From NCBI GenBank assembly GCA_035221665.1, contig CM069131.1, forward strand, positions 128,960,001 to 129,024,000: a DNA stretch of 64,000 nucleotides. The letters are read 5' to 3'. Of this stretch, positions 1-60,620 are shown piece after piece (positions within the stretch are counted from its first letter, which is position 1; every line of letters starts with the position of its first letter). The position numbers were made by a program, and so were the translations under genes. The notes beneath the pieces were generated by a model. It was not told the DNA's origin, ran no database searches, and saw only the letters and a program-made list of their open reading frames with translations. This stretch comes from Okamejei kenojei. Lineage: Eukaryota.

Positions 1-440
1 CCTGTCACTATACCTCCTCCCTTGACTCTGTCCAGGAACCCCGACGGTCTTTTCAGGTTAGACAGAGATTCACCTCCAACCTCAACTATTGTATCTGTTG
101 TTCAAGATGTGGACTCTTATACACCGGCGAGACAAAACGCAGACTGGACGATCGTTTCGCTGAACACCTTTGCTTAGACCACCTGGACCTACTTGATCTC
201 CCGGTTGCAAAACACTTTCCTTCCCCTTCCCATTCCCACACTAATCTGGTCTGAAGAAGGGTCTCGACCCGAAACTTCACCCAATCTTCTCTCCAGAGAT
301 GCTGCCTGTCCTGCTGAGTTACTCCAGATTTTGGTGTCGACACACACACTGACCTTTCTGTCCGAGGCCTCCTCCATTGTTTAGAGTGAGGCAAAACATT
401 AATTGGAGGAACAGCATCTCATATTTCGCTTCGGCAGCGA
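1..440 (+). mobile_element. Penelope-like element, GIY-YIG endonuclease region (decayed); its 3' part resumes at ~3686-3789 and ~8593-8795
   Basis: Translates as SFQVRQRFT..YCICCSRCGLLYTGETKRRLDDRFAEHL and LEEQHLIFRFG, the same motifs as the better copy at 19399-20302; the downstream UTR sequence resumes after the inserted elements. Confidence 0.85.
248..283 (+). ncRNA. Minimal type I hammerhead ribozyme motif in a short Penelope-tail insertion (~243-344)
   Basis: GGT-CTGAAGA-A-GGGTC tc GACCC-GAAA-CT-TC-ACC: CUGANGA and GAAA boxes, stem II hairpin, stem I ggt/acc. Confidence 0.6.
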
Positions 441-446
441 ATTTAC

Positions 447-3400
447 TCACGTCATCATATGGCGCCGTGAGCGGCAGCCTCGCCAGCAGTGTGCCTGTCA
501 TTTCGACCTTTTTTGTTTTTTTAATATGTCTAAATGTATGTGTTAATGTTTCTCGGGGGGGGGGGGGGGGGGTGGGGGGGAATATGGGGAAACTGTTTCC
601 AGTCACTTACCTGGGGGGGAGATGCGACTTTCCTTCTTTTTTTTTTACTTTTTTTTTTAGTTTCTTTATAGAAACATATTTATGAAAGTTACAATGTTTT
701 ACATAAACAAAAATACATCATTATATACTTTCATAATATTAATAATAATATCAATATTATTAATATTATGTTTAAGACTGTGTTTAAATTTGACTGTATG
801 CTTCTATACGCTTTTTTAATTATTTTTTTATAAAGTAGGAAAAGATAGAGATAAATAATGAAGAAAATATGAAAGCGAATGGAGTGTTAATCATTAATCC
901 GTCATTGGAGATATAGGCATGATTTATTATATATATTTCTTCATCCATTCTAATATTCAGGCCTCAGTCAAGCCCTCGTACCGAGCTGTTATGACTCTGT
1001 AAATATTAAATATATGGAGACCATATCCCTCTGAAGAGATCTAACCTGTCCATTAGGACAAGCCTCAATCTCTCCAGATGAAGAGTCTCCGACATTTCTG
1101 TATTCCACATTTTGATTGTAGGGGATGTAGGGCCTTTCCAAAATTGTTATATTATTTTCCCAATTATTAACCCATAATCAATAAAAATTCTTTGATTCGT
1201 TGTTACTAATTGTTCTGTTTCCAGTATTCCTAGTATTATTAGCTTTGAATCAGGTGTCAAAGTTATATTAACAACATTCGAAATAATCCTAAATATTTCA
1301 GTCCAGAATTTTGTAATTTGTATACAGATTGTAAATAAATGTGACAAATTGGCTTCTAAATGTTGACATTTATCACATATGGGGGATACTTTTGGAAACA
1401 TATTATGTAATTTGTATTTTGAGTAATATAATCTATGTAGTATTTTAAACGGTATAAGAGAGTGTTTAGCGTTTAGCGAACAATGATGTATATGTTGTAA
1501 ACTATCATCCCATACTTCTGGTCTAATAGTTTGGCATAATTCATTTTCCCAAGATTGTCTATGTATTTCTGTTGATGGAACATCACCTTCCAATAAGATA
1601 TTATATATATATGAAATCATTTTTTCTGTATTCGGATGTTTATTTAAACATTCATCTAATATTTCTGTCTTTCTATTTCTGAGTTCTTGCGTATTTGCTT
1701 TAACATAATCTCTAATTTGTAAATATCTAAAGTAATCTTTAAAGTGTAGTCCATAAATTTGTTGTACATCTTGAAATGAAAGGAAAGAGTTTTCCCTATA
1801 GAGATTACCGATCTTAATAATTCCATTATTTTTCCACTGTAAAAAAGCTTTATCCATCATTGAAGGTTTAAACGTAACATTATTTACAATGCTAAGAGAT
1901 AATGGTATAGATTTTAGTTTTAATGTTTTCTTTATTTGTTTTCCAAATACGTATTCCACTTCCTATTATTGGGTTTTCACTATAAGATTTCTTAGCTAGA
2001 TTAATATTAGCGAATATTATAGAACTAATTTCAAAAGGCGAACAATCTTCTTTTTCCATATTTAACCAAGTTGGTTGGTTATCTATTTCTTCTAACCAAA
2101 AATTCATATTTTTAATGTTAACTGCCCAATAATAAAACATAAAATTTGGTAGTGCTAGACCTCCGTTTATTTTTTGATTTACATAAATGTTTTTTATTTA
2201 TTCTATGGCTCTTATAATCCCAAATGAAGTTAGTGACTAGAGAGTCCACCTCTTTAAAGAAATTTTTTAGGGAGATATATCGGGATTGATTGGAAAAGGT
2301 ATAATAATTGTGGAAGAAAAAAAACATTTTTATTATATTAATTTTTACCTAACATTGAAATAGGTAAAGTTTTCCAATATAAGATATTCTTATTTAATTT
2401 ATTCAGTAATAATGGAAAATTAGCTTTAAATAATGAGTCAAATCTTTTTGTTACGAAAAATTCCAAGATATTTAATTTTTTCATTTGTTATCTTAAAAGG
2501 GAATTGTTGTAATATGTGTAAATTATTTACCGTTATTGGCATGTTCACTTTTATTCCAGTTAATACTATATCCTGAATAGGATCCAAATTCAGTTATTAA
2601 TTTTAACAAATTACGAATACTAGTTTCTGGTTTTGTGATGTAAAGTAGTACATCATCCGCATATAAAGAAATTTTATTTTTAGTGTCTCTAGTATCGTAT
2701 CCATATATTTCCGGATGTGATCTCACCCTCAGAGCTAGCGGTTCTATTGCCAGTGCAAACAGTAAAGGGGATAAAGGGCAACCTTGTCTACAACCTCGAG
2801 ATAAATTGAATTTAGGTGATAACATTTGGTTTTGTATATAGCAATTTTTTTGGGCGGATTTGTATATAGCAATTTGATCCAGGTAATAAACTTTTCTCCC
2901 AGTTTGAAAGCTTCCATAACCGAGAACAAATAAGGCCATTCCACTTGATCAAAGGCTTTCTCTGCATCTAACGAAATAACTACTAGATCTCGGGGGGGGG
3001 GAATATGGGGAAACCGTTTCCAGTCACTTACCTTGGGGGGAGGTGCGACTTTTCTTCTAGTCGTATTTTCGCCTCCTTCGCGGCATGACAACTTGGATTG
3101 GTGTGACCTTTCCCGGAGACGGCCCAGAGCTTCAGCAGCAGGCGCGGCACAGACTTCCATCGCGGAGCCAACAGAAAGGCTCCGACCGCCGGCCTGCTGA
3201 CTTTTACATCATGAGGCCGCGGTCTGCGGAGCTTCTAGCAGCAGGCGTGGAGCGGACTTTACCATCCCGGAACTAGGGATCCCTCGCCGGGGATCACCAG
3301 AGAAGAGCCCCGACCGCTGGCCTGCCTGTGGCCTATAACATCAAGAACCTGCCGTCTCCGGTAAGAAAGTGGCCAATTCGGGCTCTCCAAGCCCCAAGAG

Positions 3401-3692
3401 TGTGCTCCATCCATCCTGACGTCAGAGCTTCGATCATCCCGACAAGAGAGCCTGTACATCTGGCTGTCCGTAGCGGCGACTACAGAGGGTCAAAGCCCCA
3501 AACACGGGTGAACAAAAAGGAGGAAGACTGACTGAACTTTATTGCCTTCCATCGCTGTGATCACTGTGGTGGATGTTTATGTTAAGTTCTATCGTGTATT
3601 GTGTTCTTTTAATTGTATGGCTGCATGGTAACTCAAATATCACTGAACCTTAATTGGTGCATGTGACAATAAATATGAACTTGAATGAACTT
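447..3692 (+). mobile_element. Non-autonomous GC-rich retroposon, copy 1 (parts ~447-637 and ~2988-3692, split by L1)
   Basis: Head ATGGCGCC..GGCAGCCTCGCC and tail ..CATGTGACAATAAA(TGAACT)n are shared with copies at 47003-47826 and 57718-58415; no coding capacity. Confidence 0.7.
638..2987 (-). mobile_element. 5'-truncated L1-clade LINE (ORF2 RT and C-terminal part, frameshifted)
   Basis: VISLDAEKAFDQVEWPYL, RGCRQGCPLSPLLFALAIEPL, ISLYADDVLLY, C-terminal CDKC..HLFTIC; poly(A) seen as a T-tract at ~637-660. Confidence 0.93.
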
Positions 3693-4003
3693 GATTTCTC
3701 TAACTTTAAGTAAACCCTGCATTCCCTCTCTCTCCATCCCTCCCCCACCCAAGTCGCACCAGCTTCTCGTTCTCTCAGAGGAAACAGCTAAGATTAAACG
3801 AGAACTTACCAGTTTGGTTTGATCTTTATTTTATGAGGAGTTACGATGAGGGATTACGTGAAGAAGCCCCGCAGGCGCATGCGCGTCATACTTCAAAGCA
3901 GCGGCATGAAAACACAGAAACTATAGCCGAAATGATATAGTAAGACTCAGAAGACTAGAACTACCAGATGATCTTTGCGATTATGAGGGCCGGGAGCGGA
4001 GGG

Positions 4004-4116
4004 CACGTAATCCCTCATGGTAAATCCTCATGAAATAAAGATCAAACGTCAAACTGGTAAGTTCTCATTTAATCTTTCTATTTTACTTCGGAGTCACGTG
4101 AGTGACTACGTGAAGA
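4004..4116 (-). other. DIRS internal complementary region (ICR)
   Basis: 4004-4075 is the reverse complement of 3790-3860; 4078-4116 is the reverse complement of 8554-8592. Confidence 0.9.
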
Positions 4117-4329
4117 TTTCAAAGCTCTGTGATTTCATGCCGTAGAACCATTCCATACACACACTGCTTCAGTTGACACAGTAGTGAATAATGTATTGAA
4201 CATTGCTTCGAATTATCCAATAATCATTTTTTAAATAACCAAACAGTAATAACCCCTCTATTCCAGGGGAAATTACAAATGAAATTTATAAAGACAAAGC
4301 AAATCAAACGGAACCCAAAACAGCATGCC

Positions 4330-5230
4330 CAAATCTGGCACTGTCAGGACAGGTTTATCATAAATTTTTAGAAAAGTTGATTCTTTAGACCATCCTGCGG
4401 CCTCGCTGCGGATGTTGATGCCGCCCTGGTGGAGTGAGATTTAAACACATGAGTGTCTACTCCAGCGGAATCCAAAACCTGGTTTACCATCTAGAAATTG
4501 TTTATACTAACACCTTTTTATGAGGGTTTTTGTGACTGGTGAGCATTGCTGTCTCAGAGCCTCTGAGACTCTTAGTTACCTCGACTTAGTTATTGTCTCA
4601 GGTGCTTAACTACACATAATGTTTGGTCAACGGGGTATGCTTTAAAACTTATTTTGGCTCCGGCCATTCCTGGCCTGCTTTGTTTGATTAAATCATACAC
4701 ATAAAATGTAATGTTATCTGCAGAAGAATACATGCTATATAGTCATAACTTTTGCAATGTTTGCACTCATTGCACTGATACTAGCGCCATGAGCTTAACC
4801 ACTTTAAATGTTAACTTCTGAAAAGACAATGACATATTTGGAGCCCATTGCCGAAGCAGTGTGAGAACTATACTGACATCCTAGATTTCTGTATATCTAG
4901 GTTTAGGAGGATTTTTGTTAAAGATTCCTCTCATGAATCGGGACACTAATGGATGAGACCCGATAGGTTGTTGTTCTGAAACTGCCCTAAATAGGAGGAC
5001 AAAGCACTCCGAGCACTATTAATGGCACTATAATTCAAGTTTTCATCAAAATGCAATGTAGCAAGGAACTCCAATACATCTGGTATGCTTGCAGTATGAT
5101 AAGATATATCTGACTGTAAACAACATCTCCCATTTCTTAATATGAGACACATATCGTTTCTTAGTGCTATCTCTCCAAGCTGCAGTTATCACATCCATGG
5201 TCCTATTTGACTGTCCAAGGCCTTCAAACA
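4330..5230 (-). pseudogene. DIRS tyrosine recombinase (disrupted)
   Basis: N-terminal DVLEFLATLH..YSAINSARSALS; LMALVSVQ*VQTL (catalytic Arg position is TGA at 4767-4769); FKSHSTRAAS (HxxR); AGWSKESTFLKIYDKP. Confidence 0.88.
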
Positions 5231-5249
5231 GTCTGGTCAGAACATGCAG

Positions 5250-7100
5250 ATGAACAAATTAATATGATCATGTAATGGATGACTTTCTCCTGTTACTGGA
5301 TGCACCCACAAATTACTGCAGTTAGGGACAGTCATGAATGGGCACCAATGGGAACCATGGCTGTGTAGGCCAGTCCGGAACCACCAAAACGCCTAAGGCG
5401 GAGTCCTGCTCTATTTTGGTGAGATATTGCCTAATCAGGCAGAATGGGGAAAAAGCATAAAAGAATGTTCGTCCCCAATGTAGCGAGAATGCATCCACCG
5501 ATACTGCTCCTAAATCTGGTTCCCATTAAACATATTTAGGCAAGTGGTGATTTAGCCTGTTTGTAAACAGATCTATATCTGGCAAACCATAGTGGCTGAC
5601 AATCATTTTAAAAACATCAGGATTTAACATCCATTCTGTGTTGTCATTAAATTTTCGTGACCTGTTGTCTGCCACCACATTATCTCTACCTGGTAGGTAG
5701 ATAGCTGAGACCCAGATGTTTCTGGAAATACACCAGTGCCACATGAGGTTAGCCAGATTATCACATGATACTGACCTTATTCCTCCCATGTGATTGATAT
5801 ATGCCACAGCCGTGATATTATCAATCTGTAGTTGAACATGTAAATTATTCATTGTTGAACAATAAGCTTTTAATCCATAGAATGCACCCAGCAATTCTAA
5901 ATAATTTATACCATGCCTGTGCAGGATTAAATCCCCTTGCACACTCCATCTACCACCACAGCTAGACTCGCTGTCCGTAGCTCCCCATCCGGCAGCACTC
6001 ACATCTGTCTGTAAAACCACTGAAGGTTGCTGAACCAAAATGTTTTTGGTAGTTTGTACAATATTGATAATCCACCATTGTAATGGAGCTATGGCTCTGG
6101 TTGGTAACTGCATAGGTCTATCAAAATGACCTGCATGTTCTTTAAGTGCTAGTTCTCTAGCTCGTTGCAGACTTTGATAGTGCAGTAGTACAAACTGCAC
6201 TGCAGGGAAAGCTGCCACCAATTTACCAATAACACTGGCTACTTCCCGGATGGAGGGATATTGTTTTTCAGCGAGATTAGTACAGACCTCTCTGATCTCC
6301 ACAGCCTTGGCTGTAGGCAAAGTCACTGACATATCGACTGAATCAATGACAAATCCCAAATAATCAATTTTTTGGGATGGCTCTAACTTGGATTTGGTTG
6401 GATGGACCAGGAACCCTAACCTTTCAACGGATGTTTGGTTGCTGAACCCGATTCCTTAGCTGTCTCCGGAGTGTTACTTATGATTAAAATATCATCTAGA
6501 TAAGCCATTACCATGTGAATCTGGGCCCGAAGTAGCGCCAGCATTGGTTTCAACAATTTCTTGAATAGCCTAGGAGCTGAGGTTAACCCCTTGGGTAATG
6601 CTTTAAATTGCCACAGCTGTTCCATCCAACTAAATTTCAAATATCTCCGATACTGATGATGAAATGGTACTGAATAATATGCATCTTTCAGATATATAGT
6701 TGCCATATAACAGCCTTGTGATAACAGCAGTTTCGCAGTATTGAAGGTGTCCATTTTAAAAATGCCTATACTGAACATAGGAATTTAACTGGTTTAGTTC
6801 CAGAATGACTCTACATCCCCCATCTTTTCTCTGTCTGGGGAATATATTGGACACAAATTGTTGAGGATGGTTTGTCGTCCTCTCAATTACCCCTTTTTTG
6901 GGACAAAACCATAATTTCTTCTTTTACCTGCTGAGTTTCTGGTGCAGAAAAAAAAAACAATACTCTATTAGGCATATTCTGTACAGGCGGATCAATTCCT
7001 GACATAAACTCTATTCGAGCCTGACACAGTGTCTAGTATAAACCGATCAGATGTTATGCAGCACCATTCATCATAAACAATTGCAACCTACCCCCAATCA
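5250..7100 (-). pseudogene. DIRS reverse transcriptase / RNase H / methyltransferase-like ORF (frameshifted)
   Basis: GGRLQLF, KDAYYSVP, GLTSAPRLF, MAYLDDILI; RNase H TDVSAAGWG..LELLG..IDNITAVAYINHMGG..LPGRDNVVAD; PDIDLF..VDAFSLHW..YAFSPF..VVPDWPTQPWFP. Confidence 0.92.
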
Positions 7101-8325: not shown

Positions 8326-8697
8326 GGTCCCTGCGCATTCCGCTCCACTAGGTCAGTTTATATTTACAATACCTCCATATTACTAACTCTAGCTGGCTCT
8401 CCGAGCCAGACTTACAGAGTTTAAAATACCTGCAGGGAGGGTTTAACATTGACTTACCTGCGGGTTACTACTTACCGCTGGTGGAGCTGAGCTTTCCAGC
8501 ACGTCGGTGCGCCATGCGTCAGATGTAATGACGTGCATACACCTGGTGGGGCTTCTTCACATAGTCACTCACGTGACTCCGAAGTAAAATAGCCTGTTTC
8601 CTTTACCATTGTTACTTTTTTGCATATCATTAATTCATTTGTCCTATATTTCTCCACATCACTGTCTATATCTCTCGTTTCCCTTTCCCCTGACTCT

Positions 8698-8733
8698 AGT
8701 CGGAAGAAGGGTCTTGACCCGAAACGTCACTCA
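8698..8733 (+). ncRNA. Hammerhead motif (core mutated, CGGAAGA) in the Penelope 3' tail
   Basis: AGT-CGGAAGA-A-GGGTC tt GACCC-GAAA-CG-TC-ACT. Confidence 0.5.
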
Positions 8734-9139
8734 TTCCTTCTCGCCAGAAATGCTGCCTGTCCCATTGAGGTACTCCAGCAATTTGTGTCTATCTTTTGAG
8801 GAACAGCAGCCCCCTTCCATCATTCATTCACAAGGCAACCCTGGTGTCACTCTAAGACAAATATTCCTTGTCCTCTCTATCCTTCCTCCAACATTACCTG
8901 CAACTTAAAACTGTTCTCTCACTTTCCCAGTTCTGAAGAATTTTGATCTAAAATATGAGCTCCTTTCTCTTTGTATTGAGGCTGAGGATTTGCTGAGGAT
9001 TTTTAGTATTTTCTGTTTTGTTTCAGATCTCCTGCAACTGCATTATTTTTTGATTATCATTTGTTAAATGATTGTCCTGATTTCCACACCAGTGTGCTTT
9101 AATATCTGGTTATGGTAATGTACATACTGTATTTGTTCA

Positions 9140-16519: not shown

Positions 16520-16795
16520 GGTCATAGAATCATACAACACGGAAACAGGCCCTTCATCCCAACTCATCCATGCTGACCAAGATGCCCATCAACTGTAAAC
16601 TAGGGTACACAAAATGCTGGAGAAACTCAGCAGGTGCAGCAGCATCTATGGAGCGAAGGAGATAGGCAACATTTCGGGCCGAAACCCTTCTTCAGACCTG
16701 TAAACTAGTCCGTTTTCAGAACTGTAAACTAGTCCCATTTGCCCACGTTTGGCCCATATCCCTCTTAAGCTTTCCTATTCATGTACCTGTCCAGG
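16520..16795 (-). mobile_element. CR1 3' tail containing a hammerhead mini-element (16604-16697, minus strand)
   Basis: TSD ctgtaaactag at 16593-16603 and 16698-16708; insert reads GGT-CTGAAGA-A-GGGTT tc GGCCC-GAAA-TG-TT-GCC on the minus strand. Confidence 0.8.
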
Positions 16796-18363: not shown

Positions 18364-19398
18364 AATCTCCATTTTCATGTCTGGAAATGAAGGGATATGG
18401 ATGATATAATGACAAATTAGATTAGTTTATCTTCCACTAAAAATTATTCCCATTAGTCCCTTTATCATGTATCTGTACACTGCGGATGGCGCGACTGTAG
18501 TCATGTATTGTCTTTCAATAGACAATAGGTGCAGGAGTAGGCTTTTCACTGTACACTTGACAATATATCTAAACTCAATCTTGGCATTATGTTTTGCACA
18601 GATATTGTGGGCCGAAGGGCTGTTTGAACTTTGTTCAATGTTCTATGTAGTTGGGCATTTAATGAGAGGATATTATGCGGTAAAATGGCCAATACGTCCT
18701 GCTGGAACTAAACTTTGCTTTCTCAAGTGAGTGAGTGTTTTATTGCAGTATGAACTGGGAACAAAAAATAAAGTCCAAGATATCGAGAGAACTAGCATAA
18801 CAATTCAGGTACACTGATTCCTCACTGATATATATTTTCCTGCTTTCTTTTGTGTTTCTCTTGTTTTCTCAAGCTTGGAGTTCAGTTTTACCTGACATCG
18901 GTATCGGGTTCATCTCGCTAAATTTTTGCAAGCCTGAAGGGTTGCTGTTGAAAAATAATACATTGTGAATTCCTTGTCAAGAATAAACAGCAAAGATTTG
19001 GTGGGAACAGGAAGCAGTGGGTTGAAGTAATAGTGTTTGACTGCAATCAGAAAAAGCCTTTTCCTGATAGGAAACAGCTTGAAGATTAGCACATGTCAGC
19101 AAGCCCAGGGCCGACACAAGCTGATGCTGCATCCAACTCCTGCTGAAAGCCAGAGCTTTAATAGCACCAGGATTGTGGCCAACTGTTCCTCATTTGTGAG
19201 AGTTATCTCGAGTTTTCTATTTTTCTATTAAACATAGACGTTTGTAAGCAATGATGATTTATTATTTAGCAACGGATTTTACTGAACCTCCATATTCTCA
19301 AAAAAAAAACCAAGGTGCTGGAGGACATTTAATGTCTGAAGAAGGGTCCTGACCCGAAATGTCACCTATCCATGTCCTCCACAGATGCTGCGTGACTT

Positions 19399-20302
19399 CA
19401 GTTCCCTCCCCTACCATAGATGAGGCTCTCACCAGGGTCTCTTCGATACCCCGCAACACTGCTCTCTCTCCCCATCCCCCCACTCGTAACATGGGCAGAG
19501 TCCCCCTCGTCCTCACATTCTACCTCACTAGTATACGACAAATAGTCCTCCGCCAGTTTCGCCACCTCCAACGTGACCCCACCACTCGCCACATTTTCCC
19601 ATCTCCCACCCTGTCTGCTTTCGGCAAAGACCGCTCCCTCCATAACTCTTTAGTCAGTTCTTCCCTTCCCTCCCGCACCACCCCCTCCCCGGGCACTTTC
19701 CCTTGCAACCGCAAGAGGTGCTACACCTGTCGCTTTACCTCCCCCCTCGACTCCATTCAAGGACCCAAGCAGTCGTTCCAGGTGTGACAGAGGTTCACCT
19801 GCATCTCCTCAAACCTCATCTATTGCATCAGCTGCTCTAGATGTCAGCTGATCTACATCGGTGAGACCAAGCGTAGACTTGGCGATCGTTTCGCCGAACA
19901 CCTCCGCTCGGTCCGCATTAACCAACCTGATCTCCCGGTGGCTCAGCACATCAACTCCCCATCCCATTCCAAATCCGACCACTCTGTCCTAGGCCTCCTC
20001 TATGGCCAGAGTGAGGCTCACCAGAAATTGGAGGAACAGCACCTCATCTTCCGCTTGGGCAGTCTGCACCCTAGTGGCATAAACATTGAATTCACCACTT
20101 TCCGGTAGTCCTTGCTGTCTCCTCCCCTTCTCAGCTCTCCCTCAGCCCTCGGGCTCCTCTTCCTTTCTTCGCCCCCCCCCCCCCCCCCCCTCCCCCGCCC
20201 TACATCAGTTTGAACAAGGGTTTCGGCCTGAAACATTGCCTAATTCCTTCGCTTCTTAGATGCTGCTGCACCCACTGAGGTTCTCCAGCACTTTTGTCTA
20301 CC
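19399..20302 (+). mobile_element. 5'-truncated Penelope-like element (linker, GIY-YIG endonuclease, 3' UTR with decayed hammerhead)
   Basis: RVPLVLTF..GTFPCNRKRCYTC..SFQV, then LIYCISCSRCQLIYIGETKRRLGDRFAEHL..VAQHIN..LEEQHLIFRLGSLHPSGIN; 13-bp TSD tgctgcgtgactt at 19386-19398 and 20303-20315. Confidence 0.92.
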
Positions 20303-20393
20303 TGCTGCGTGACTTGCTGGGTTACTCCAGCACTTTATGCATTTTTTTTTTGTAAACCAGCATCTGCATTTCCTTGCATGTCCATATTCTCCA

Positions 20394-21879: not shown

Positions 21880-22160
21880 AAAGACACAAAGCACTGGAGT
21901 AACTCAGCAGGTCAGGCAGCATCAAGTAATGGTCCCGCCCCAAATCCATGTTCTCCAGGGACGTGTAGGAAGGAGCTGCAGTTGCAGTTGCCACTGCAGG
22001 TGCTGGTTTACACCGAAGAGAGACTCAAATAGCTCAGTAGGTCAGACAGCATCACTGGAGAACAGGAATAGGTGACGTTTCGGGTCGAGACCTTTCTTCG
22101 GACTTAAGATGCCAGGGATGCTGCCTGACCTGTTGAGTTAGTACAGCATGTGCATTTCCT
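21880..22160. mobile_element. Nested Penelope-tail mini-elements
   Basis: Inverted ctggagtaactcagc..gcagcatc arms; inner minus-strand copy with a hammerhead-like motif, flanked by ccaggga repeats. Confidence 0.65.
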
Positions 22161-26040: not shown

Positions 26041-26214
26041 ACAAATCTGGCATCATAGTCAACACGATCATTGGGAGCCAGAGCTGACCTGTACCTGATG
26101 TTCCTGTGCTGTCCTGTTTTATGTCGTATGTTTTATGTTCTGTAGTAACATACATCAACTCTTTAAATTGTTCAATCCATTGCCAATCCTAGCCAAGACA
26201 ATAGTCTTCCTTTA

Positions 26215-26448
26215 GGGTACACAAAATGCTGGAGAAACTCAGCGGGTGCAGCAGCATCTATGGAGTGAAGGGGATAGGTAACGTTTCGGGTCGAAACCCA
26301 AAGGTTTCTCTCAAAGGGTTTCTCTCAAAGGGTTTCGGCCCAAAACATTACCTATCTCCTTCGCTCCATAGATGCTGCTGCACCCGCTGAGTTTCTCCAG
26401 CATTTTGTGTACCCTCGATTTTCCAGCATCCGCAGTTCCCTCTTTAAC
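26215..26448. mobile_element. Palindromic Penelope-tail insertion with 17-bp TSD
   Basis: Arms ~26214-26300 and ~26329-26415 are reverse complements; TSD acaatagtcttccttta at 26198-26214 and 26449-26465. Confidence 0.9.
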
Positions 26449-27487
26449 ACAATAGTCTTCCTTTATTTTGTATACACAATGGGTGCAGCATTTCTCCCTA
26501 AAGCCAAATTAGGTGTTAAAATAGAATAATGTTGAATTGACATATGAAGAAAGCACCACTGTGGTTTTCTACACCATTTAAAGCTGGCACCCATCCCATT
26601 CACACACTGCTATCCGGGAAGAGGGTCAGTGCAATTTAAAATCCACAGAGGGTTCCCATGGAAAAGTGGCAAATTGGTTGCAGGGCAGACGGGATCATGG
26701 GGAGTGGAGATGGAGAGGCAAAATGGGAGGGTTTGGGCGGGAGGGGGGTGTCAGAAATCATCAGAGTAGGAAATGTCAAGGGAGAAAGAAATAAAATATA
26801 TCAGAGGAGGGAGAAGATTAAGCAGGTAAAAGGACCCCAATGGTGTGGAGAAGGGGAGATAGAATAGGGTGATGGTAGGAAGAATATGTTCTGCATGACA
26901 GTACAGGCTGAAACAATGAGCCCACTGGACTGGCCTGCTAATGGGTTGTGTGGAGGGGGTAGTAGTGGCTTCTGCAGCATTTTGAGGCAGAAAGCTACAG
27001 AGGGATCCTTCCTAGAGAAAAGGTGTTGAGAGTTAATGACAATGTAAAAGTGTTGTTAATGATTCTTCAATTTGATGATTTCTATACATGGGAGATGACT
27101 CAAGAGTTTGATCTTGGAATAAACAAACCAACCCACTGAAGGTACAAACATTTCTTGCTCATCGGCTGCCTGAGACTTCTTTCTTGAATCTTCCTCCACT
27201 CTTTATTTCTCTTTAATTGCCTCTCCCGTACGGAGGATGTGACACCATTAGTGCAAAATCCGTTTTGCTTCTCCCAGCCTGTGATGGTTATTCTATTTTC
27301 TTAATCTCCACTGGTATTTCCACTGGCAATGGTGGATCTCTAATCGTGGGTGAACTGGGAGCAGAGAGCTAGTTTGAGGAGGCATGAATCTGGCAAGTGC
27401 TCAGGATGTCCAGATCAGTGGGGTTGGTTCATGAGGATCATTGCCTCAAAACTGATGACATTGATTTCAGGTCAGAATAGCAGCATT

Positions 27488-29576: not shown

Positions 29577-29708
29577 TGTAGGAAGGAACTACAGATGCTG
29601 GCTTATAATGAAGATAGACACTAAATGCTGGAGTAACTCAACCGTACAGGCAGAATCGTGGGATAGAAGGAATGGGTGACATTTCGGGTCGAGGCCCTTC
29701 TTCAGACC
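29577..29708 (-). mobile_element. Hammerhead-bearing Penelope-tail mini-element with 9-bp TSD
   Basis: TSD atgtttata at 29568-29576 and 29709-29717; minus strand starts GGT-CTGAAGA-A-GGGCC tc GACCC-GAAA-TG-TC-ACC. Confidence 0.82.
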
Positions 29709-36647: not shown

Positions 36648-37800
36648 ATATTGGTGAAATCAAATGCACAATCAAGTGGTTACTTGGCAGGGCAGTTGGG
36701 TTCCTCCCTATTTCCTGCCACTTTAGTCCTTTATCCCACTCCCATACTGACCTATCTGTTTATACCTATCTGTTCTGAGAGCTCATGCAAAGAGCTGGGG
36801 AACTACCAAATCACTCTCATCCACTTTGTGAAGGAACACAAAATCAATACATCGCCAGTAAATCAGAATGAATTCTATCAATACATAGAAACGACAAAAC
36901 GTTTTATTTGGAGCTAAAGAATTCAGTGAACAAAAGATGGTCAGCTGCAGATGGGTGTTTGCTTAAAAAAAATCAGAATGTTGGAAGGCCTATAATTAAC
37001 CATCTGGTGCAAAGCTGACCCATTAGAGGCACAGGAAGAAAGCTTATTAATTATGAACATGATTACATTTATCATTTGGCTTTTGCTTTATTATTACAAA
37101 TAGTTTTTCATTATTGCATTTCTTTGACAAGAGAAAGAAATCTGATGTTTAACAATGAAGCTGGCTTTCAGATCATCCACATTAGTTGCCTGTATAATTC
37201 AGATGAATAATGGTGATGAGAATACAGCCGTCAGAGGGCTAGCGCAAAGCTGCCGTGACTACCACGTGTACTCCCGTGTACAGAGACAGGGCAAAGCTGC
37301 CGTGACCACAGCGTATACTCCCATAAGCACATCATCCACATTAGCTGCCTGTAGAAATAGAAACATAGAAACATAGAAAATAGGTGCAGGAGTAAGCCAT
37401 TCCGCCCTTCGAGCCTGCACCACCAGGCTCGAATATAATCAAACCAAGAGAACAACAGGGATTTGAATTCACAGATTGAAATTTGTTTTAAGCAATTTGA
37501 TCATTTAAGCAAGTACAGACTTCATTTCAATATGAAAATGGTAGCGCCAACCCCATTCAGTATCTATTCGCAAAGGTATGTCCATGAGGTTTTGTCAAAT
37601 CTGTTTCTAGGAAATATTGGTGAAATCAAATGCACAATCAAGTGGTTACTTGGCAGGGCAGTTGGGTTCCTCCCTATTTCTTGCCACTTTAGTCCTTTAT
37701 CCCACTCCCATACTGACCTATCTGTTTATACCTATCTGTTCTGAGAGCTCATGCAAAGAGCTGGGGAACTACCAAATCACTCTCATCCACTTTGTGAAGG
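36648..37800 (+). repeat. 187-bp direct duplication (36648-36834 and 37614-37800)
   Basis: One visible mismatch (tttcctgcc vs tttcttgcc); the content is an old Penelope GIY-YIG remnant. Confidence 0.93.
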
Positions 37801-41440: not shown

Positions 41441-44102
41441 GATTCTATTTGGAGCTGCCGACAACAATGGCACCTGCCAGGATGCCCACAGAGGGAAGCT
41501 GCAACACATCAAGAAGGGAAACCATGCTGAAATCAACAGTGTCAAATTCTGCCCAATCTTACCCAGGAAAATCAGCACATTGTTCTGTTAATCGTGCAAT
41601 TAAATGTATCATTATGCAAAGAGTAACCTGCAACTTTGCTTTAATAGCAAAAAAAATGGCTGTGAACAATTTCTGGATATTTTACACTCACTCTTCATCT
41701 TGAACTACTTAGTTTGATAAAATAATAACTCACAAAATTCTGTATTCCATAAATTGTATTCAATAAGTTTGATTTTGTTATATATTTAATAATACTTTTT
41801 CTTTCCAATAACTGTTAACTTCGCCTATTTCGTTTCAAGCATAATGTCAACTATCGAGAAATTGTTTAGACTTTTGCTGTTCTTGGACAAGCCACAGAAA
41901 CATATTGCCCTCCATTTTGACCTGTTCTTCAAATTCCAGCATTATTTTTCAATTTCCAGCATTAATATTTTATGAAAACATCACCCATTCCTTCTCTCCA
42001 GAGATGCTGCCTGCCCCGCTGAGTTGCTCTAGCTTTTAGTGTCTACCTGTCTAATATTTTATCAATTTATTAAAATCCTTCTAATCAATAATCACCAGAT
42101 CTCTGTCATTCCATTGTTCTACAGGCTCATCCTCCCACCTATAACCATTCCCATTAATCATCGTTCTTGGACAATATTTCATTTTAATCGGTTTCTTCCT
42201 CACTGCTCAAAACTGTGGATGTGTTTTGTTCTCTCCCACAGCCTTTTCTTGTCACAGCAATCATTAAAATCAAATCTTGGAACTGTCTAAATACCACTCT
42301 TTAGCACTTTGTCTTGGACTAATGGTCTTTCACCTCTGTCCAGGTTTCTGTGAAAAAAAAGGCGATGTTAATATAAAGCTAAACTACAATTGTTTTTTCT
42401 GATTTTTTCTCGCCGTATTACTGAACTGATAGAAATAATACTTACATATACAAGTCTCACACCATCCATTTCTGGTATTTGAAATGATCATTTTTTAAAT
42501 TCCACTGCTTCACTATCCACCTACATATTTTCACTAATCGTTGAAGTAGTCATCACACCCTCAGCTATGCTTCAGGTTACAAAGGAAAACAGCCAGGCGA
42601 GATCTCTTTGCCAAAACCTTAAATTGCAGCATAGGCATAACTTCCCACAGATGGCATTTAGTTACATTTCAAAGATCATTTTATGTTCATATCCAGATAG
42701 ATGCCGGTGGGATAATTTCTGAAGCAATGCTCATGAAGGTTTTGCTTTTTCTGCTTACTCTAATTGATTGTTGTGAAACTAGTTCCAGCTTCAAACCCAT
42801 AGCGTTACATCTGCAAAAGATGCTAATGGTATTCATTGATGTTACTAAACTTTATGAATATCATTGAATGCACTTATTTTGAACCATTTTGGCTTGACTG
42901 GCAAACCGATTAAATTCTCGTGACAGGACAAATTGAACACTTACTGAAACAAGGAAGCATAGGTTTACATAACTGCTAATTTTTAAATTCTGCAAAGGTA
43001 AAAGAAGCATAGTGATTCACCATTGGTGGCATTTTCAAACAGAATCCATCTGCTGCTGTGGTTCAAAGTTCATTTCATCGATCTTTGCCCCACAACATTA
43101 AGCGGCAGTTTAAAAACCCATCTGCGATTCCATTCTGAAGATAAATTTTGCACTGCAGACGTCATTTATACACTGGTCAAAGCAAAGTACTGGGAACTCA
43201 ATTGTCCATGAAAGCTACAGCACATTAATGGGATTTTTTAAGCTTCTCAGGAGATCGACTACTTCAAAAGAAAATGTTATATATTATGCACACAGAGTTC
43301 TGTTTCATCTGGAATTATTTAGTGCAGATAATATTTTTCAGAGTATCAATAAGGATTTCCAAAGAGTACACCTGGGAGAAATAAGCCACTTGCAATAGAT
43401 GACTGTTTTCATTTTTTAACACAACAAGAAATGGTTATGGAGTCTAGGCAGCTGCTCAGCCATCACTTTCATCATCAAGATGTTTCATCAAGTGTTATTA
43501 ATTTGCTAGGAATTTAGTTCTGGCAGCACAATTCAATCATGAACCATAGGCCAATGTTGTAGCTGCTGTTTATTTCAGTCGGAAGGCTCCTTTTCTGTTA
43601 ATAGTATTTGTGCAGCAATTGTTTGCCTGCTGCTGTCACTGGTTTCAAGGTCGTTCACTCTGCGTCATTACTTTGAACATGAACCTAGTATATCTGTACA
43701 AACGACCGCTTGCCCCTCCATCCGTACTGTGAATAAATACTCCTCTGCACATGAAGCACGTTTAGACATCTCCATGGCTATCGGGGCACTGAATAAGGTC
43801 TTTTGTATCACCGTCAATAAAATGGTGGAAACACTCGTCAATGACTTGCTACGGAGGCAGCCATAGTCCTATTCTATCGCTGATATTTCTTTTGTCCTAT
43901 CCATTCCACCCCCACCTTCTCCATATGTTTCGCAGTTATGATGAAAGATCTTCGACCTGAATGTTATCTCTGGTTTTCTTTCCACCGGTGTTATCAAATC
44001 TGAAACTTTCCATTTTTTATCTCATAAAGACCAATCAGACTTCAGCAGACCCATAGCACTGCTATTGGAATACTTTGACTCAAAACTCTACAACAAGGCT
44101 CT

Positions 44103-46230: not shown

Positions 46231-46896
46231 AATGCTCCAAATGCCATCCCTATTTCACCAAGACCAACGAAGAGTTAACAAAAAATGACCTTATTTTGTT
46301 GTCACTCTGTTCAGCCTCTTTGCCGGGGCCTCGTGAAACAAGGTGTCAACACTTACCCTCAGATACAACACTTCACCTCAATGCAGCTGGAGGATAGAAA
46401 CTGTTCTACTTCATCAGGTGATGAGCCTCAATGTCCCCCCCAATTGTGACAGATTCATAGCTCAGGCATGGGTTAAACTGCAACTGAGGTTCTAATGACT
46501 TTTGGAATCTGGAGTTGAAGGCATCCATGAAAGCATGTTGTCAGGACCAGAAGTAAACGATAGTTTAGATTTCACACTGAACATGGTGCAAACCTATAGT
46601 GGAAGGCAGTTGTGGCTGACTGCATTGGCATGTTTAAGAGGCTGTTGAATTGAAGCACAGAGATTATATTAATAGTGTGAGTCGAGGTATCATTGCACAT
46701 TGTTCTTGGGTCGTGAGACTCGGCAGATGCGCTGCAATGGTCCGCTGTGCATTCTACTGCTTCTATTTAGAAAACATCACGTATGAATATAGACAAGATA
46801 CAAGATACAAGACACATTTATTTGTCAAAGTGTTGTGCGAACTAGGAGTTTTTTTAAACTTTTTTTTAATTTTTTTATTTTAATTTATTTTTCAGG

Positions 46897-46939
46897 GATC
46901 AGGTCTGAAGAAGGGTCTCGACCCGAAACGTCGCCTATC
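46897..46939 (+). ncRNA. Best-preserved minimal hammerhead motif in the window
   Basis: gat(c)AGGT-CTGAAGA-A-GGGTC tc GACCC-GAAA-CG-TC-GCCTatc: intact core, GUC cleavage triplet, extended stem I; lies in insertion 46828-47002 with 14-bp TSD acatttatttgtca. Confidence 0.7.
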
Positions 46940-47002
46940 TCCTTCGCTCCTTAGATGCTGCTGCACCCGCTGAGTTTCTCCAGCCTTTTGTGTAACCCCA
47001 CA

Positions 47003-51946: not shown

Positions 51947-53274
51947 TGGTGGCTTTCAAATGAAGCCTCATGAAGAACCTGAAAAATGAACTCTGCTTCT
52001 TTTCCCATTGACACAAGCATTTACGTAACTTTTCAATGTTCTGTAAAGAACTAAAATCAAGATCTTGTTTCAAAGTAGAACATTTCCTTGTTCAACTCCC
52101 CACTGAGCACAAGCTTTGTTAATGATCACATTAAAATTTTAAATTGTGTAAGTACCATAAAAATGAATGAACCAAATATAGGCTTCCTACATAGATGAAC
52201 ATTATTTACTGTGGGAGGGTAGAATCTCAGTAACTGAGTCACCTCCTTGTTAATTTACTCTCTTTTCTGTTGAATATGACCTTTTTGTTACTTGTCTTGT
52301 TGAAGGAAACAGATGCATGGCTCAGAGAGATGTATCTCTGTTTTAATCCTGCACACACTTACTTCCATCAGCCAGATGTAAGTTAGCTATTAATTATGTC
52401 ACCGCTGACAAGATTATCTAGAGAATGGCAATCAATGGACTTGACTTCATAATGTACGATCAGCAGTGATATTTTGCTTGACAAAATTATTTTCAGTAGT
52501 TCATAAATCAGAACAGAAGTTTGCATGTCCTGAACTGGTAACATATCTGTAATAAAAAAGTAATAACTATTTGTATAAACTGAACTCCACACACTGAGAT
52601 CAATACCTTCTTCCATCATGCACAAAACCTCCTCTCATGGTATCACTCATTTTGTCAGGAAAAGGAGTGTATTGCAATATCCTTTTGTTGTGGATGCAAT
52701 AAACATTCCATAACATTTTATATTTGAATCAGAGGCAAAAGTCCAATTAGAGGGCTGCAGGCTACACAAATTGCATCGAGTAGTTTGGGATCCTTTAATA
52801 CAAAAAAACGATATGATGGAGCTTAGAGTATAGTCATTAGTGAACAAATTAAAGCCAAATGTGATCTTAAAACTTTAATATTAAAGCTTTCAAGTCTAAA
52901 CAGACTCTTGGCATGATACCTCTGTGGGAAATTAAGACTGCAATTCCACTGAATTAGATCACTATGCTATCTTTCAAACTTCGCCATTAGCTGATTGCAT
53001 ATGTTCCTGAGCAGTATTTTTCTGTTTACGTCAAAGGAATGAATTGCCTAACGGTAGTTTGATATAAATTAGTGTTTTTTAATCTCTGCTAGAGAGTTCT
53101 GATTGACTCAATTTTGTCACTGGAAAACAATTGGGAGTTCTTGCCGTTTACTAATCTCGAGACCCTTCAGGCTAACAGTTCCAGCTGCAACAAAAATAAC
53201 TTCCATTTATATAGCATCTCCACTGGCTCTAAAACAAATCCAGAGACTTCCCAGCAGCGCAGAGGAACTCATAT

Positions 53275-53454
53275 GTGTAAGAAGGAACTGCAGATGCTGG
53301 TGTAAACCGAAAATAGACACAAAAAGCTGGAGTAACTCAGCTGGACAGGCAGCATCTCTGGAGAGAAGGGTCTTGACCCGAAATGTCACCCATCCATTCT
53401 CTCCAGAGATGCTGCCTGTCCCGCTGAGTTACTCCAGCTTTTTGTGTCTATCTT
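53275..53454. mobile_element. Palindromic Penelope-tail insertion with 15-bp TSD
   Basis: Arms 53313-53367 and 53397-53451; TSD cagaggaactcatat at 53260-53274 and 53455-53469. Confidence 0.9.
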
Positions 53455-53971
53455 CAGAGGAACTCATATTCCTGAAATGTGATTTATCATATTACTTCCA
53501 TGTGGAGTTTGATGAATCAATCATCGAACACAGATCATAGAATAGTACAGCACAGGAACAAGCCCCTTCAGCCCTTGAACGCAGCATTCTGGTAAACTCT
53601 TCTGCATCCTCTTTAAAGCTTCCACATTCTCTTTGTATTCAGGCGACCAGAACTGCACACTATTCTACGAATGTGGCCTAACCAAAGCCAAAGAAGGTGC
53701 AGTGCAACTTCCCGACTCTTATACTCCAGCCAAAGTTTATCCAATCTTTAGGGCCTGTTGAAACAATGGCTCAAATTCCTCACCAGCACGCAAATGTTAG
53801 GAAGCTTGGAATTCTTGTTCCAGTTGAAACCTGCATGAACACTCATGTCCTGAGTTTCTGGGAGGTGCAATTGGCAGGGAAATTGAACGGGTGCAGTGCC
53901 TCTGTGAAAAGTATGGGGCTGGATGGATGGCAAAGTCACAGTAAGAGGACCGCGTAGAGCCGAAGTTAGGA

Positions 53972-55589: not shown

Positions 55590-57660
55590 TAGAAACATAG
55601 AAAATAGGTGCAGGAGTGGGCCATTCAGCCATTCAATATGATCATGGCTGATCATCCAACTCAGTATCCTGTACCTGCCTTCTCTCCATACCCCCTGATC
55701 CTCTTAGCCACAAGGGCCACATCTAACTCCCTCTTAAATATAGCCAATGAACTGGCCTCAACTACCTTCTGTGGCAGTGAATTCCACAAAAATGTTTTTC
55801 TCGTCTCAGTCCTAAAAGATTTCCCCCTTATCCTTAATCTGTGACCCCTTGTTCTGAACTTCCCCAACATCGGGAACAATCTTCCTGCATCTAGCCTGTC
55901 CAACCCCTTAAGAATTTTGTAAGTTTCTATAAGATCCCCTCTCAATCTTCTAAATTCTAGCGAGTACAAGCCAAGTCTATTCAGTTTTTCTTCATATGAA
56001 AGTCCTGACATCCCAGGAATCAGTCTGGTGAACCTTCTATGTACTCCCTCTTTGGAAAGAATGTCTCTCCTCAGATTTGGAGACCAAAACTGTATGCAAT
56101 ACAACTGGTGTGGTCTCACCAAGACCCTGTACAACTGCAGTAGAACCTCCCTGCTCCTATACTCAAATCCATTTGTTATGAATGCTAACATACCATTCGC
56201 TTTCTTCACTGCCTGCTGCACCTGCATGCCTACTTTCAATGACTGGTGTACCATGACACCCAGGTCTCATTGCATCTCCCCTTTTCCTAATCGGCCACCA
56301 TTCAAATAATAGTCTACTTTCCTGTTTTTGCCACCAAAGTGGATAACCTCACATTTATCCACATTATACTGCAGCTGCCATGCATTTGCCCACTCACCTA
56401 ACCTATCCAAATTACCTTGCAGCCTCCTAGCATTCTCTTCACAGCTAACACTGCCCCCCAGCTTCGTGTCATCCACAAATTTGGAGATGTTGCATTCAAT
56501 TCCCTCATCCAAATCATTAATATATATTGTAAATAGCTGGGGTCCCAGCACCGAGCCCCACTAGTCACTGTCTGCCATTCTGAAAAGGATCCTACTCTTT
56601 GCTTCCTGTCTGCCAGCCAGTTCACTATCCACATCAATACTGAACCCCCAATACTGTGTGCTTTAAGTTTGCATACTAATCTCTTATGTGGGACCTTGTT
56701 GAAAGCCTTCTGAAAGTCCAGATATAACACATCCACTAGTCTCCCCTTATCCACTCTACTAGTTACATCCTCAAAATATTCTATAAGATTTGTCAGACAT
56801 GATTTACCTTTCATAAATCCATGCTGACTTTGTCCAATGATTTTACCACTTTCCAAATGTGCTACTATTCCATCTTTAATAACTGACTCTAGCAGTTTCC
56901 CCACTACCGATGTTAGACTAACCGGTCTGTAATTCTCCGTTTTCTCTCTCCCTCCCTTTTTAAAAAGTGGGGTTACATTAGCTACCCTCCAATCCTCAGG
57001 AACTACTCCAGAATCTAAAGAGTTTTGAAAAATTATCACTAATGCATCCACTATTTCTGGGGCTACTTCCTTAAGTACTCTGGGATGCAGCCTATCTGGC
57101 CCTGGGGATTTATTGGCCTTTAATCCATTCAATTTACCTAACACCACTTCCTGGCTAACCTGGATTTCACTCAGTTCCATCTCATTTGACCCATGGTCCC
57201 CTGCTATTTCCGGCAGATTATTTATGCCTTCCTTAGTGAAGACGGAAGCAAAGTAGTTATTCAATTGGTCTGCCATGTCCTTGTTCCCCATGATCAATTC
57301 GCCTGTTTCTGACTGCTAGGGACCTACATTTGTTTTAACTAATATTTTTTCTCTTTACATATCTATAAAAACTTTTGCAGTCAGTGTTTATGTTCCCTGC
57401 CAGTTTTCTTTCATAATCTATTTTCCCTTTCCTAATTAAGCCCTCCTCTGCTGGACTCTGAATTTCTCCCAGTCCTCTGGTAGGCTGCTTTTTCTGGCTA
57501 ATTTGTTTACTTCATCTTTTGTTTACGATACTATCCCTGATTTACCTTGTTATCCATGGATGTACTACCTTCCCTGATTTATTATTTTGCCAAACTGGGA
57601 TGAACAATTTTTGTAGTTCATCTATGCAGTCTTTAAATGCCTTCCATTGCCTATCCACCA
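55590..57660 (-). mobile_element. 5'-truncated CR1 LINE (RT domain), inserted in a Rex1 remnant (55380-55590, 58417-58580)
   Basis: KSPGPDRLHPRVLKE, PEDWRVANVTPLFKKG, YLDFQKAFNKVPH, LGPQLFTIYINDL, KFVDDTKL, LVRPHQLYCIQFWSP; (tttctatg)n tail. Confidence 0.95.
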
Positions 57661-58964: not shown

Positions 58965-60620
58965 AGAAACATAGAAACATAGAAATTAGGTGCAGAAGTA
59001 GGCATTCAGCCCTTCGAGCCTGCACCGCCATTCAATATGATCAGATCATCCAACTCAGTATCCTGTACCTGCCTTCTCTCCATACCCCCTGATCCCTTCA
59101 GCCACAAGGGCCACATCCAACCCTCTTAAATATGGCCAACGAATGGCCTCCACTACCTTCTGTGGCAGAGAATTCCACAGATTCACCACTCTCTGTGTGA
59201 AAAAAACGATTTTCTCATCTCGGTCCTACAAGACTTCCCCCTTATCCTTAAACTGTGACCCCTTGTCCTGCACTTCCCCAACATCGGGAACAATCTTCCT
59301 GCATCTATAAGAATTTTGTAAGTCTCTATGGATCACCCCTCAATCTTCTAAATTCCAGCGAGTTACAAGCCGAGTCTATCCAGTCTTTCTTCTTATGGAA
59401 GTCGTGCCATCCCAGGAATCAGTCTGGTGAACCTTCTCTGTACTCCCTCTATGGCAAGAATGTCTTTCCTCAGATTAGGAGATCAAAACTGTACGCAATA
59501 ATCAGGTGTGGCCTCAAGACCCTGCACAATGCAGTAGAACCTCCCTGCTCTTGTACTCAAATCCATGCCAACATACCATTCGCTTTCTTCACAGCCTGCT
59601 GCACCTGCATGCACCTTTCAATGACTGGTGTACCATGACAACCAGGTCTCGCTGCATCTCCCCTTTTCCTAATCGGAGTCTACTTTTGCTTTTGCACCAA
59701 AGTGGATAACCTCACATTTATCCACATTATACTGCATCTGCCATGCATTTGCCCACACACCCAGTCTATCCAAGTCATCCTGCAGCCTCCTAGCATCCTC
59801 CTCACAGCTAACACTGCCCCCCAGCTTCGTGTCATCCGCAAACTTCGAGATGTTGCATTTAATTCCCTCGTCCAAATCATTAATGTATATTGTAAATAGC
59901 TGGAGTCCCAGCACTGAGCCTTGCGGCACCCATAGTCACTGTTTGCCATCCTGAAAAGGACCCGTTCACTCCTACTCTTTGTTTCCTGTCTGCCAGCCAG
60001 TTCTCTATCCACATCAATACTGAACCACCAATACCGTGTGCTTTAAGTTTGTATACCAATCTCTTGTGTGGGACCTTGTCGAAAGCCTTCTGAAAGTCCA
60101 GATACAACGCATCCAGCTTCACCCTTATCCACTCTACTAGTTACTTCTCAAAAAATTCAATAAGATTCGTCAGACATGATTTACCCTTCACAAATCCATG
60201 CTGACTTTGTCCAATGATTTCATCACTTTCCAAATGCGCTGCTATCTTTAATAATTGACTCTAGCAGTTTCCCCACTACCGATGTTAGACTAACTGGTCT
60301 GTAATTCCCCGTTTTCTCTCTCCCTCCCTTTTTAAAAAGTGGGGTTACATTAGCTACCCTCCAATCCTCAGGAAAATACTCCAGAATCTAAAGAGTTTTG
60401 AAAAATTATCACTAAGGCATCTGCTATTTCTGGGGCTACTTCCTTAAGTACCCTGGGATGCAGCCTATCTTGCCCTGGGGATTTATCGGCCTTTAATCCA
60501 TTCAATTTACCCAACACACTTTCCGGCTTACCTGGATTTCACTAATTTCCTCCATCTCATTTTGACCCACGATCCCCTGCAATTTTCGGCAAATTATTTA
60601 TGTCTTCCTTAGTGAAGACT
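58965..60620 (-). mobile_element. Second CR1 copy of the same subfamily, 5'-truncated
   Basis: LYLDFQKAFDKVPHKRL, PQGSVLG, KFADDTKL; collinear with 55590-57243. Confidence 0.95.

Follow-up and report, generated by a model that had tools for sequence, protein, structure and literature searches.

Short hammerhead-bearing insertions as probable retrocopies of the terminal region of a Neptune-type Penelope-like element

EN+ Penelope-like elements (PLEs) of the Neptune clade, as described in the text of PMC8557442, have a single ORF with RT, a CX2-5CxxC linker and a CCHH GIY-YIG domain, together with partial-tandem pLTRs containing a hammerhead; heavy 5' truncation, inverted 5' copies and an optional tail of 30-40 bp are also typical. 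In the same text, the linker motif defines Neptune and is shared with Nematis. The elements analysed here share all of these features, and differ in that their 5' ends pile up sharply where the hammerhead begins on its upstream side, accompanied by an extra G, a pattern which that text does not describe; copies here reach about 400 arms/Mb. The optional tail of PLEs, again given as 30-40 bp, is enclosed by two sites at which RT starts internally (PMC11167929, PMC8557442). Two such sites bounding the tail, an uncleaved RNA template and a hammerhead at the pLTR-ORF junction are common to the present element and to the Poseidon element PAc of Anolis carolinensis (PMC11167929). In vitro, PAc primes internally on the pLTR-ORF junction, 172 nt of ORF are needed and hammerhead cleavage is dispensable, according to the text of PMC11167929. 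The ATG lies inside stem II in PAc, whereas here it follows about 164 nt after +1, and the linker here is of the Neptune type.

Minimal hammerheads (min-HHRs) of metazoan PLEs have an extra nucleotide after A9, G10.1-C11.1, a palindromic CG at 15.2-16.2 and no stable helix III (PMC4209133), all of which are shared by the putative ribozyme described here. Its helix I has 2 bp, as in D. virilis, against the 4-5 bp given for most min-HHRs in the text of that source. In D. virilis Penelope, the start site is placed 46 nt before a 75-nt intron, the 3' end of which abuts helix I (PMC2377424, PMC4209133). Non-LTR retrozymes are likewise derived from PLE pLTRs, non-coding and equipped with a type I hammerhead, and the text of 10.64898/2026.07.22.740005 describes them as tandem arrays with one hammerhead per unit. 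The great majority of the copies analysed here are, in contrast, flanked by TSDs and occur either as dispersed monomers or as head-to-head pairs; they are continuous with ORF-bearing copies.

In LTR retroelements, minus-strand strong-stop DNA is formed by priming near the 5' end of the RNA, run-off at the cap and transfer through the terminal repeat. We infer a likeness to this process, with the differences that the primer here would be nicked chromosomal DNA and not a tRNA, and that untransferred products would integrate. The present analysis bears on how PLEs regenerate the partial-tandem pLTR and on the role of the hammerhead. Proposals so far include circles formed once the RNA has cleaved itself (PMC4209133), self-priming by antisense RNA (PMC3846280) and transcripts that span several copies (PMC11167929), as set out in the texts of these sources; where the last proposes a multi-copy transcript, we propose priming on the 5' copy followed by transfer. 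The element class, the tail, the inverted arms, the min-HHR and the uncleaved template are already known. A search of the text of freely accessible articles found neither a 5' pile-up with a cap-like G nor a strong-stop model for PLEs.

Copies in the window and their source element

The window, the whole 64,000-nt stretch of Okamejei kenojei DNA that was analysed, contained 24 profile matches, UTR-only pieces included. Positions in the element are numbered from +1, the T of TCTGAAGA, with predicted cleavage 3' of C29. The recurrent hammerhead core proposed in a sequence-only reading of the window was found at 251(+), 16695(-), 19336(+), 29705(-) and 46905(+), and decayed or partial forms were present at 8698 and 20208 and near 22.1, 26.3, 42.0 and 53.4 kb.

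The copy at 16604-16697 (minus strand) is 94 bp long and runs from -1 to about +93, comprising the hammerhead and 3' region of a PLE without the tail, between 11-bp TSDs at 16593-16603 (3' side) and 16698-16708 (5' side). Its minimal type I hammerhead core, from C3 to residue 17, occupies 16668-16695 (minus strand) when read against the min-HHR features in the text of PMC4209133. The copy is decayed, with both C26 and C29 changed to T and a stem II variant containing G-U pairs. The 11-bp repeat is indeed present three times, at 16593, 16698 and 16722. The third copy (16722-16732) and a decayed element start together form an apparent 24-nt duplication at 16709-16732 (minus strand), which looks like a duplicated 5' junction consisting of TSD and element start.

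TSDs of 9 bp (29568/29709) and 14 bp (46814/47003) were both present, and further TSDs of 13, 15 and 17 bp were found around other window copies, in agreement with the idea of independent TSD-flanked insertions. The 9-bp TSD flanks a 132-bp short copy with tail at 29577-29708 (minus strand), with a single G between TSD and -1. The 14-bp TSD flanks a young copy at 46828-47002 (plus strand), in which the segment from -1 to about +96 (46902-47000) has an inverted piece of upstream UTR and T-rich filler on its 5' side. Read on the other strand, the filler at 46828-46902 begins with 11-12 nt of 3'UTR and continues as an A-rich run. The genomic locus L322 has a comparable A-rich filler.

A short copy without tail at 248-339 (plus strand) lies inside an older PLE GIY-YIG fragment (3-440, plus strand; 63.5% amino acid identity over 3-248), which it breaks at 248. 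An old short copy with tail at 19334-20377 (plus strand; 19334-19398 and 20303-20377) is interrupted by a younger insertion, whose TSD is 13 bp long (19386-19398 / 20303-20315). This insertion is a 5'-truncated PLE copy of about 900 bp at 19404-20302 (plus strand), which carries RT-thumb/EN sequence (ORF residues 950-1184, 83.8% identity), 3'UTR and a hammerhead at about 20208. A 5'-truncated copy of about 210 bp, including 3'UTR, was located at 8587-8795 (plus strand; core at about 8699), an old tailed copy (22108-21964), next to partial arms, at 21881-22160 (minus strand), and a copy truncated at about +22 at 41976-42048 (plus strand). Head-to-head inverted pairs, each with the tail in one arm, were found at 26213-26451 (17-bp TSD, 26198-26214 / 26449-26465) and 53270-53455 (15-bp TSD, 53260-53274 / 53455-53469). 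The description of these copies as mini-elements does not hold throughout: the hammerheads at 20208 and 8698 end the copies of about 900 bp and about 210 bp, the latter including 3'UTR. Since the window also holds these longer copies, the short copies are placed at the short end of one 5'-truncation series. A steep 5'-truncation gradient was also seen in contigs of probable DNA origin, which showed no sign of splicing. Other repeats in the window are a 63-nt tandem repeat in 4 copies (62117-62490) and direct repeat pairs of 187 bp (99%; 36648-36834 / 37614-37800) and 231 bp (91%; 56327-56557 / 59690-59920).

The suggested Penelope origin was upheld, as the closest genomic relatives include copies that run upstream into a GIY-YIG and RT frame. 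Protein searches recovered open frames of up to 1197 codons, and the loci L181 and L182 each contain an intact 1185-aa ORF between two pLTRs, in a unit of 3954 bp. The whole 1185-aa protein matched the Pfam families RVT_1 (E=5e-6) and GIY-YIG (E=0.004), both below the curated cut-off, and GIY-YIG was above the curated Pfam cut-off in the protein P0002; no integrase or RNase H domain was detected by Pfam in the 1185-aa protein. In the CCHH motif of this ORF, two His come after LIYCIRCSRCQMIYIG, and the stretch from GIY to YIG holds two cysteines; the linker before the EN in L181 and L182 reads CNRKKCNTC (CX4CxxC), which conforms to CX2-5CxxC. The intact element is an EN+ Penelope-like element, with a single ORF, RT and C-terminal GIY-YIG, CCHH, pLTRs, inverted 5' copies, tail and TSDs. 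Judged by its linker and CCHH motifs, it fits the Neptune clade, and the short insertions are, on sequence grounds, the hammerhead-plus-tail end (pLTR) of this Neptune-type element.

The order in the upstream pLTR is hammerhead, first 3' site (+94), tail (to about +127-133) and ATG (about +164). The tail is absent from the 3' pLTR in L181, L182 and L184, and in these three, the complete elements seen, the 5' pLTR copy alone keeps both tail and ORF start. The upstream pLTRs of L181 (oriented 2222-6670), L182 and L184 differ in length, at about 500-900 bp. A 12-bp TSD brackets L181, which implies that an insert longer than one unit went in at a single event.

Across 108 tiles of 10 kb, spaced evenly (1.078 Mb), 431 arms with the 3' part were counted, or about 400/Mb, which by extrapolation gives about a million arms genome-wide; the earlier estimate of roughly one per 6-7 kb was too low. 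TSDs of at least 10 nt were found in 89/364 random copies against 15.6 in shuffled pairings, and an inverted arm in 53/195 core copies. L089 and L111, two almost identical inverted-tail insertions that share their flanks although the loci are unlinked, have probably spread within another repeat. The two classes of 3' end noted earlier were recovered as a bimodal distribution, at about +90..103 and +131..139, and are the already published 30-40 bp PLE tail. At the 3' junctions of L001-L030 and L234-L322, many targets start with C or CA beside the element's terminal CCC, which suggests priming through short C-rich microhomology.

Hammerhead core and stems

Column counts over 166 copies agreed with a minimal type I hammerhead, with conserved core, 5-bp stem II, extra nucleotide, G10.1-C11.1 and palindromic CG. 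An Rfam scan returned no hammerhead family at E<=1; min-HHRs are not captured by Rfam. Thirty query-like loci were excluded from the counts, because they had been selected by likeness to the query and a G at -2 is over-represented among them.

Covariation in stem I, which had been read from the window copies, was not borne out. The pair -2/+32 is A-C in 101/166 ungapped random copies and paired in only 30/166, so that the genomic stem I has 2 bp: only +1/+30 and -1/+31 pair, and a 4-5 bp helix with covariation was not found. The appearance of covariation is due to junction bases, namely target bases, a junction G and an inverted fragment. The G at -2 is target-derived in the 16604-16697 copy, lies outside the TSD in the 29577-29708 copy, and at 46900 derives from a short stretch of upstream UTR in inverted orientation. 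For stem II, the earlier claim of variation with preserved pairing stood in so far as pairing is kept through G-U variants; two-sided change was almost absent. MFE folding of monomer and dimer did not yield the active hammerhead fold, a result without diagnostic value.

5' ends and junction bases

When old and young copies were taken together, 183/422 alignment starts fell in -5..+4, a count inflated by unmodelled UTRs. HMM starts in old copies are biased, the 3'UTRs of some subfamilies being absent from the profile (10/195 were recognised, and more are likely), and the rate was therefore estimated from a single young subfamily. This sample comprised 99 arms from the first 7.3 Mb of one contig, mapped on L181, and counts arms and not events, with at least one duplicated locus (L249/L305). 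The 5' ends lay in +9..-8 in 54/99, in -9..-200 in 12/99 and further upstream in 33/99, corresponding to 4.64%/nt in +9..-8 against 0.16%/nt upstream. Downstream of this zone, 1/25 copies ends between +40 and +10, and 5/28 between +55 and +10; at the latter rate, about 7 ends would be expected in +9..-8, against the 54 observed. Exact genome-wide counts, which also reflect mutation and pattern length, were 44,660 (+40..+69), 31,564 (+10..+39) and 12,533 (-10..+39). The pile-up and these counts show that the 5' ends are not random, and the clustering just before the core that had been noted in the window is thereby confirmed, as a broad peak spanning -6..+9. None of the copies examined starts at +30, the cleavage site, in keeping with the proposed uncleaved RNA template, a use of uncleaved RNA that is already published.

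The base before A(-2) was read in template-jump tandems, where the sequence of each partner is known; of 325 matches, the first 100 were listed and counted by hand, a few of them sharing a locus. In 90 of these 100, the base at -2 is A, preceded at -3 by C (45), G (35), T (6) or A (4), and among the tandems listed, 33 of the G have a template in neither partner, so that an untemplated G stands before A(-2) in 33/43 informative cases (p=7e-9 vs 1/3). Cleaved 5' fragments were rejected as jump acceptors, there being no peak at C29 in the 100 listed junctions. Genome-wide, matches with G at -3 numbered 1152 and those with A or T 1958, a ratio of 0.59 vs 0.39 expected and a raw excess of only 1.5-fold. 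GAAG stands directly before +1 in 56 of the first 100 A/T matches listed, and without this class the G ratio is about 1.1. The GAAG class looks like the product of a cDNA end re-annealing on a downstream AG. About half of the 1958 belong to it, as do L057, L089, L211 and L212, and it resembles telomerase-like realignment at a template end. In a control with starts at +4, G preceded 56/100 listed copies, a high value attributable to an 'AG' class, outside which G was at chance level (16/47). AG before +4 starts was seen in 40 of the first 100 copies listed, often in short tandem arrays. Among simple unbiased copies with TSD (n=26), only 3/11 junction fillers end in G, and 15/26 junctions are blunt or show microhomology.

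An extra G marks capped full-length L1 insertions, as the text of PMC11702581 describes. The 5' boundary of the present copies is likely to be the capped start of the element's own RNA at A(-2). The sequence YCAGTCT at this boundary presumably fits the initiator consensus. Since the intron of D. virilis Penelope ends at helix I, the YAG at the boundary could also be a splice acceptor and not an initiator. The genome, with its intact elements and more than 30,000 near-identical young copies, allows junction statistics at the level of single bases, and these favour an RNA whose capped end lies two bases ahead of the ribozyme and speak against the use of cleaved RNA.

Proposed origin of the short copies and alternatives

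We consider it fairly probable that the short insertions arose as target-primed retrocopies of the hammerhead-plus-tail region at the end of the element, and that about half of the young ones stop at the likely capped 5' end of the RNA. In this pathway, Pol II would start at A(-2) of the initiator-like YCAGTCT in the upstream pLTR, giving an RNA with the hammerhead/tail region at both ends. The RT-EN protein would nick DNA and prime at +94 or about +130 within the 5' pLTR copy. Priming on the 5' copy is likely because PAc needs ORF beyond the tail, and because none of the three complete elements has the tail in its 3' pLTR. RT would run into the cap about 95-135 nt later, and the cap would sometimes be copied as an extra G. 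Joining of the cDNA to the target would give a short copy, fold-back or meeting with a second arm would give an inverted pair, and re-annealing nearby would give short tandems, a form found in 6/195 random core copies. Transfer of the cDNA to the 3' repeat copy, and on into 3'UTR and ORF, would give long copies, and the upstream pLTR would be restored by another such transfer. These copies would be made without any contribution from ribozyme cleavage. Long copies would also be expected from transcripts that read through tandem arrays; at L177, the upstream segment exceeds 1.3 kb.

More tentatively, PLEs could replicate via a strong-stop intermediate, with TPRT beginning on a terminally redundant RNA some 95-130 nt from its capped 5' end, an obligatory jump to the 3' repeat for the ORF and a second jump for the pLTR. 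If this were true, failed jumps would have left hundreds of thousands of hammerhead insertions of about 100 bp, the pLTR would be regenerated without circles or ribozyme cleavage, and replication would join LINE-type priming, LTR-type strand transfer and telomerase-like realignment at a template boundary. The junction statistics make such a strand-transfer model directly testable. They also carry a warning, in that the roughly one million 'dispersed hammerheads' of this genome would be insertion by-products and not a SINE family.

The breadth of the peak, and the blunt or microhomology junctions in 15/26 simple copies, would also be expected if RT primed at the 3' pLTR stalled at the upstream edge of the hammerhead, for example on splice-acceptor-bound proteins or RNA structure, so that the short copies were products of ordinary 5' truncation. 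A pyrimidine tract and YAG precede +1 in all subfamilies seen, and the D. virilis intron ends at helix I. However, stalling leaves unexplained both the untemplated G specifically before A(-2) and the restarts from -2 seen in re-annealing and jumps, and RT would already be past stem II at the stop; we regard this explanation as unlikely. We think it quite unlikely that an internal promoter at -2 drives transcription of solo pLTRs or short copies, and that the resulting short RNAs are mobilised in trans, in the manner of a SINE. The same capped 5' end would result, D. virilis Penelope has an internal promoter, the upstream UTR is kept in more than 12,000 young copies, and rare head-to-tail units of about 190 nt exist. 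Against this, no short-specific subfamily was seen. In the one young subfamily, short and long copies share diagnostic variants and are similar in divergence (zero mismatch in +40..78 in 43/54 short vs 32/45 long) and in tail frequency (17/54 vs 13/45, Fisher p=0.83), and the separate SINE- or retrozyme-like module that had been inferred from the window is not supported by these data. By analogy with PAc, solo copies would be without the post-tail sequence that PAc needs in vitro, and no SINE head with a tRNA, 5S or 7SL match was found in Rfam.

A circular source, either a spliced or back-spliced exon of about 163 nt (acceptor before +1, donor AAG/GT at the start codon) or a hammerhead-processed circle in the manner of a retrozyme, seems very improbable. 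Consensus-like donor and acceptor sites do flank the region, and the exact donor-acceptor junction occurs in the genome, with 3 matches at 2 loci. Two loci are few beside about a million arms, and a jump at AG microhomology accounts for the junction just as well. No long multimers were present among the 30 loci examined, no copy was seen starting at +30, and the jump acceptors were without a peak at C29. Back-splicing, or use of the ORF as an intron, was rejected as the main source, the exact junction being confined to 2 loci and a looser search giving 34 matches, of which the 30 examined were mostly other junctions. A retrozyme tandem family was likewise rejected, as the junction of the unit of about 190 nt has 10 matches genome-wide (<=1 mismatch). 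With 10 matches and 2 loci, respectively, neither the tandem units nor the donor-acceptor junction explains the bulk of the copies.

Head-to-tail units of about 190 nt, consisting of hammerhead region and ORF start, were found at 9/30 loci of the looser junction search. At L210, L215, L216, L217, L221, L222, L225, L226 and L228, the units are old, and the ORF start is joined to the hammerhead start at one fixed position, in three cases with a G before A(-2). The fixed position may reflect a favoured site of jumping, or the units may be a genuine derivative of retrozyme-like type.
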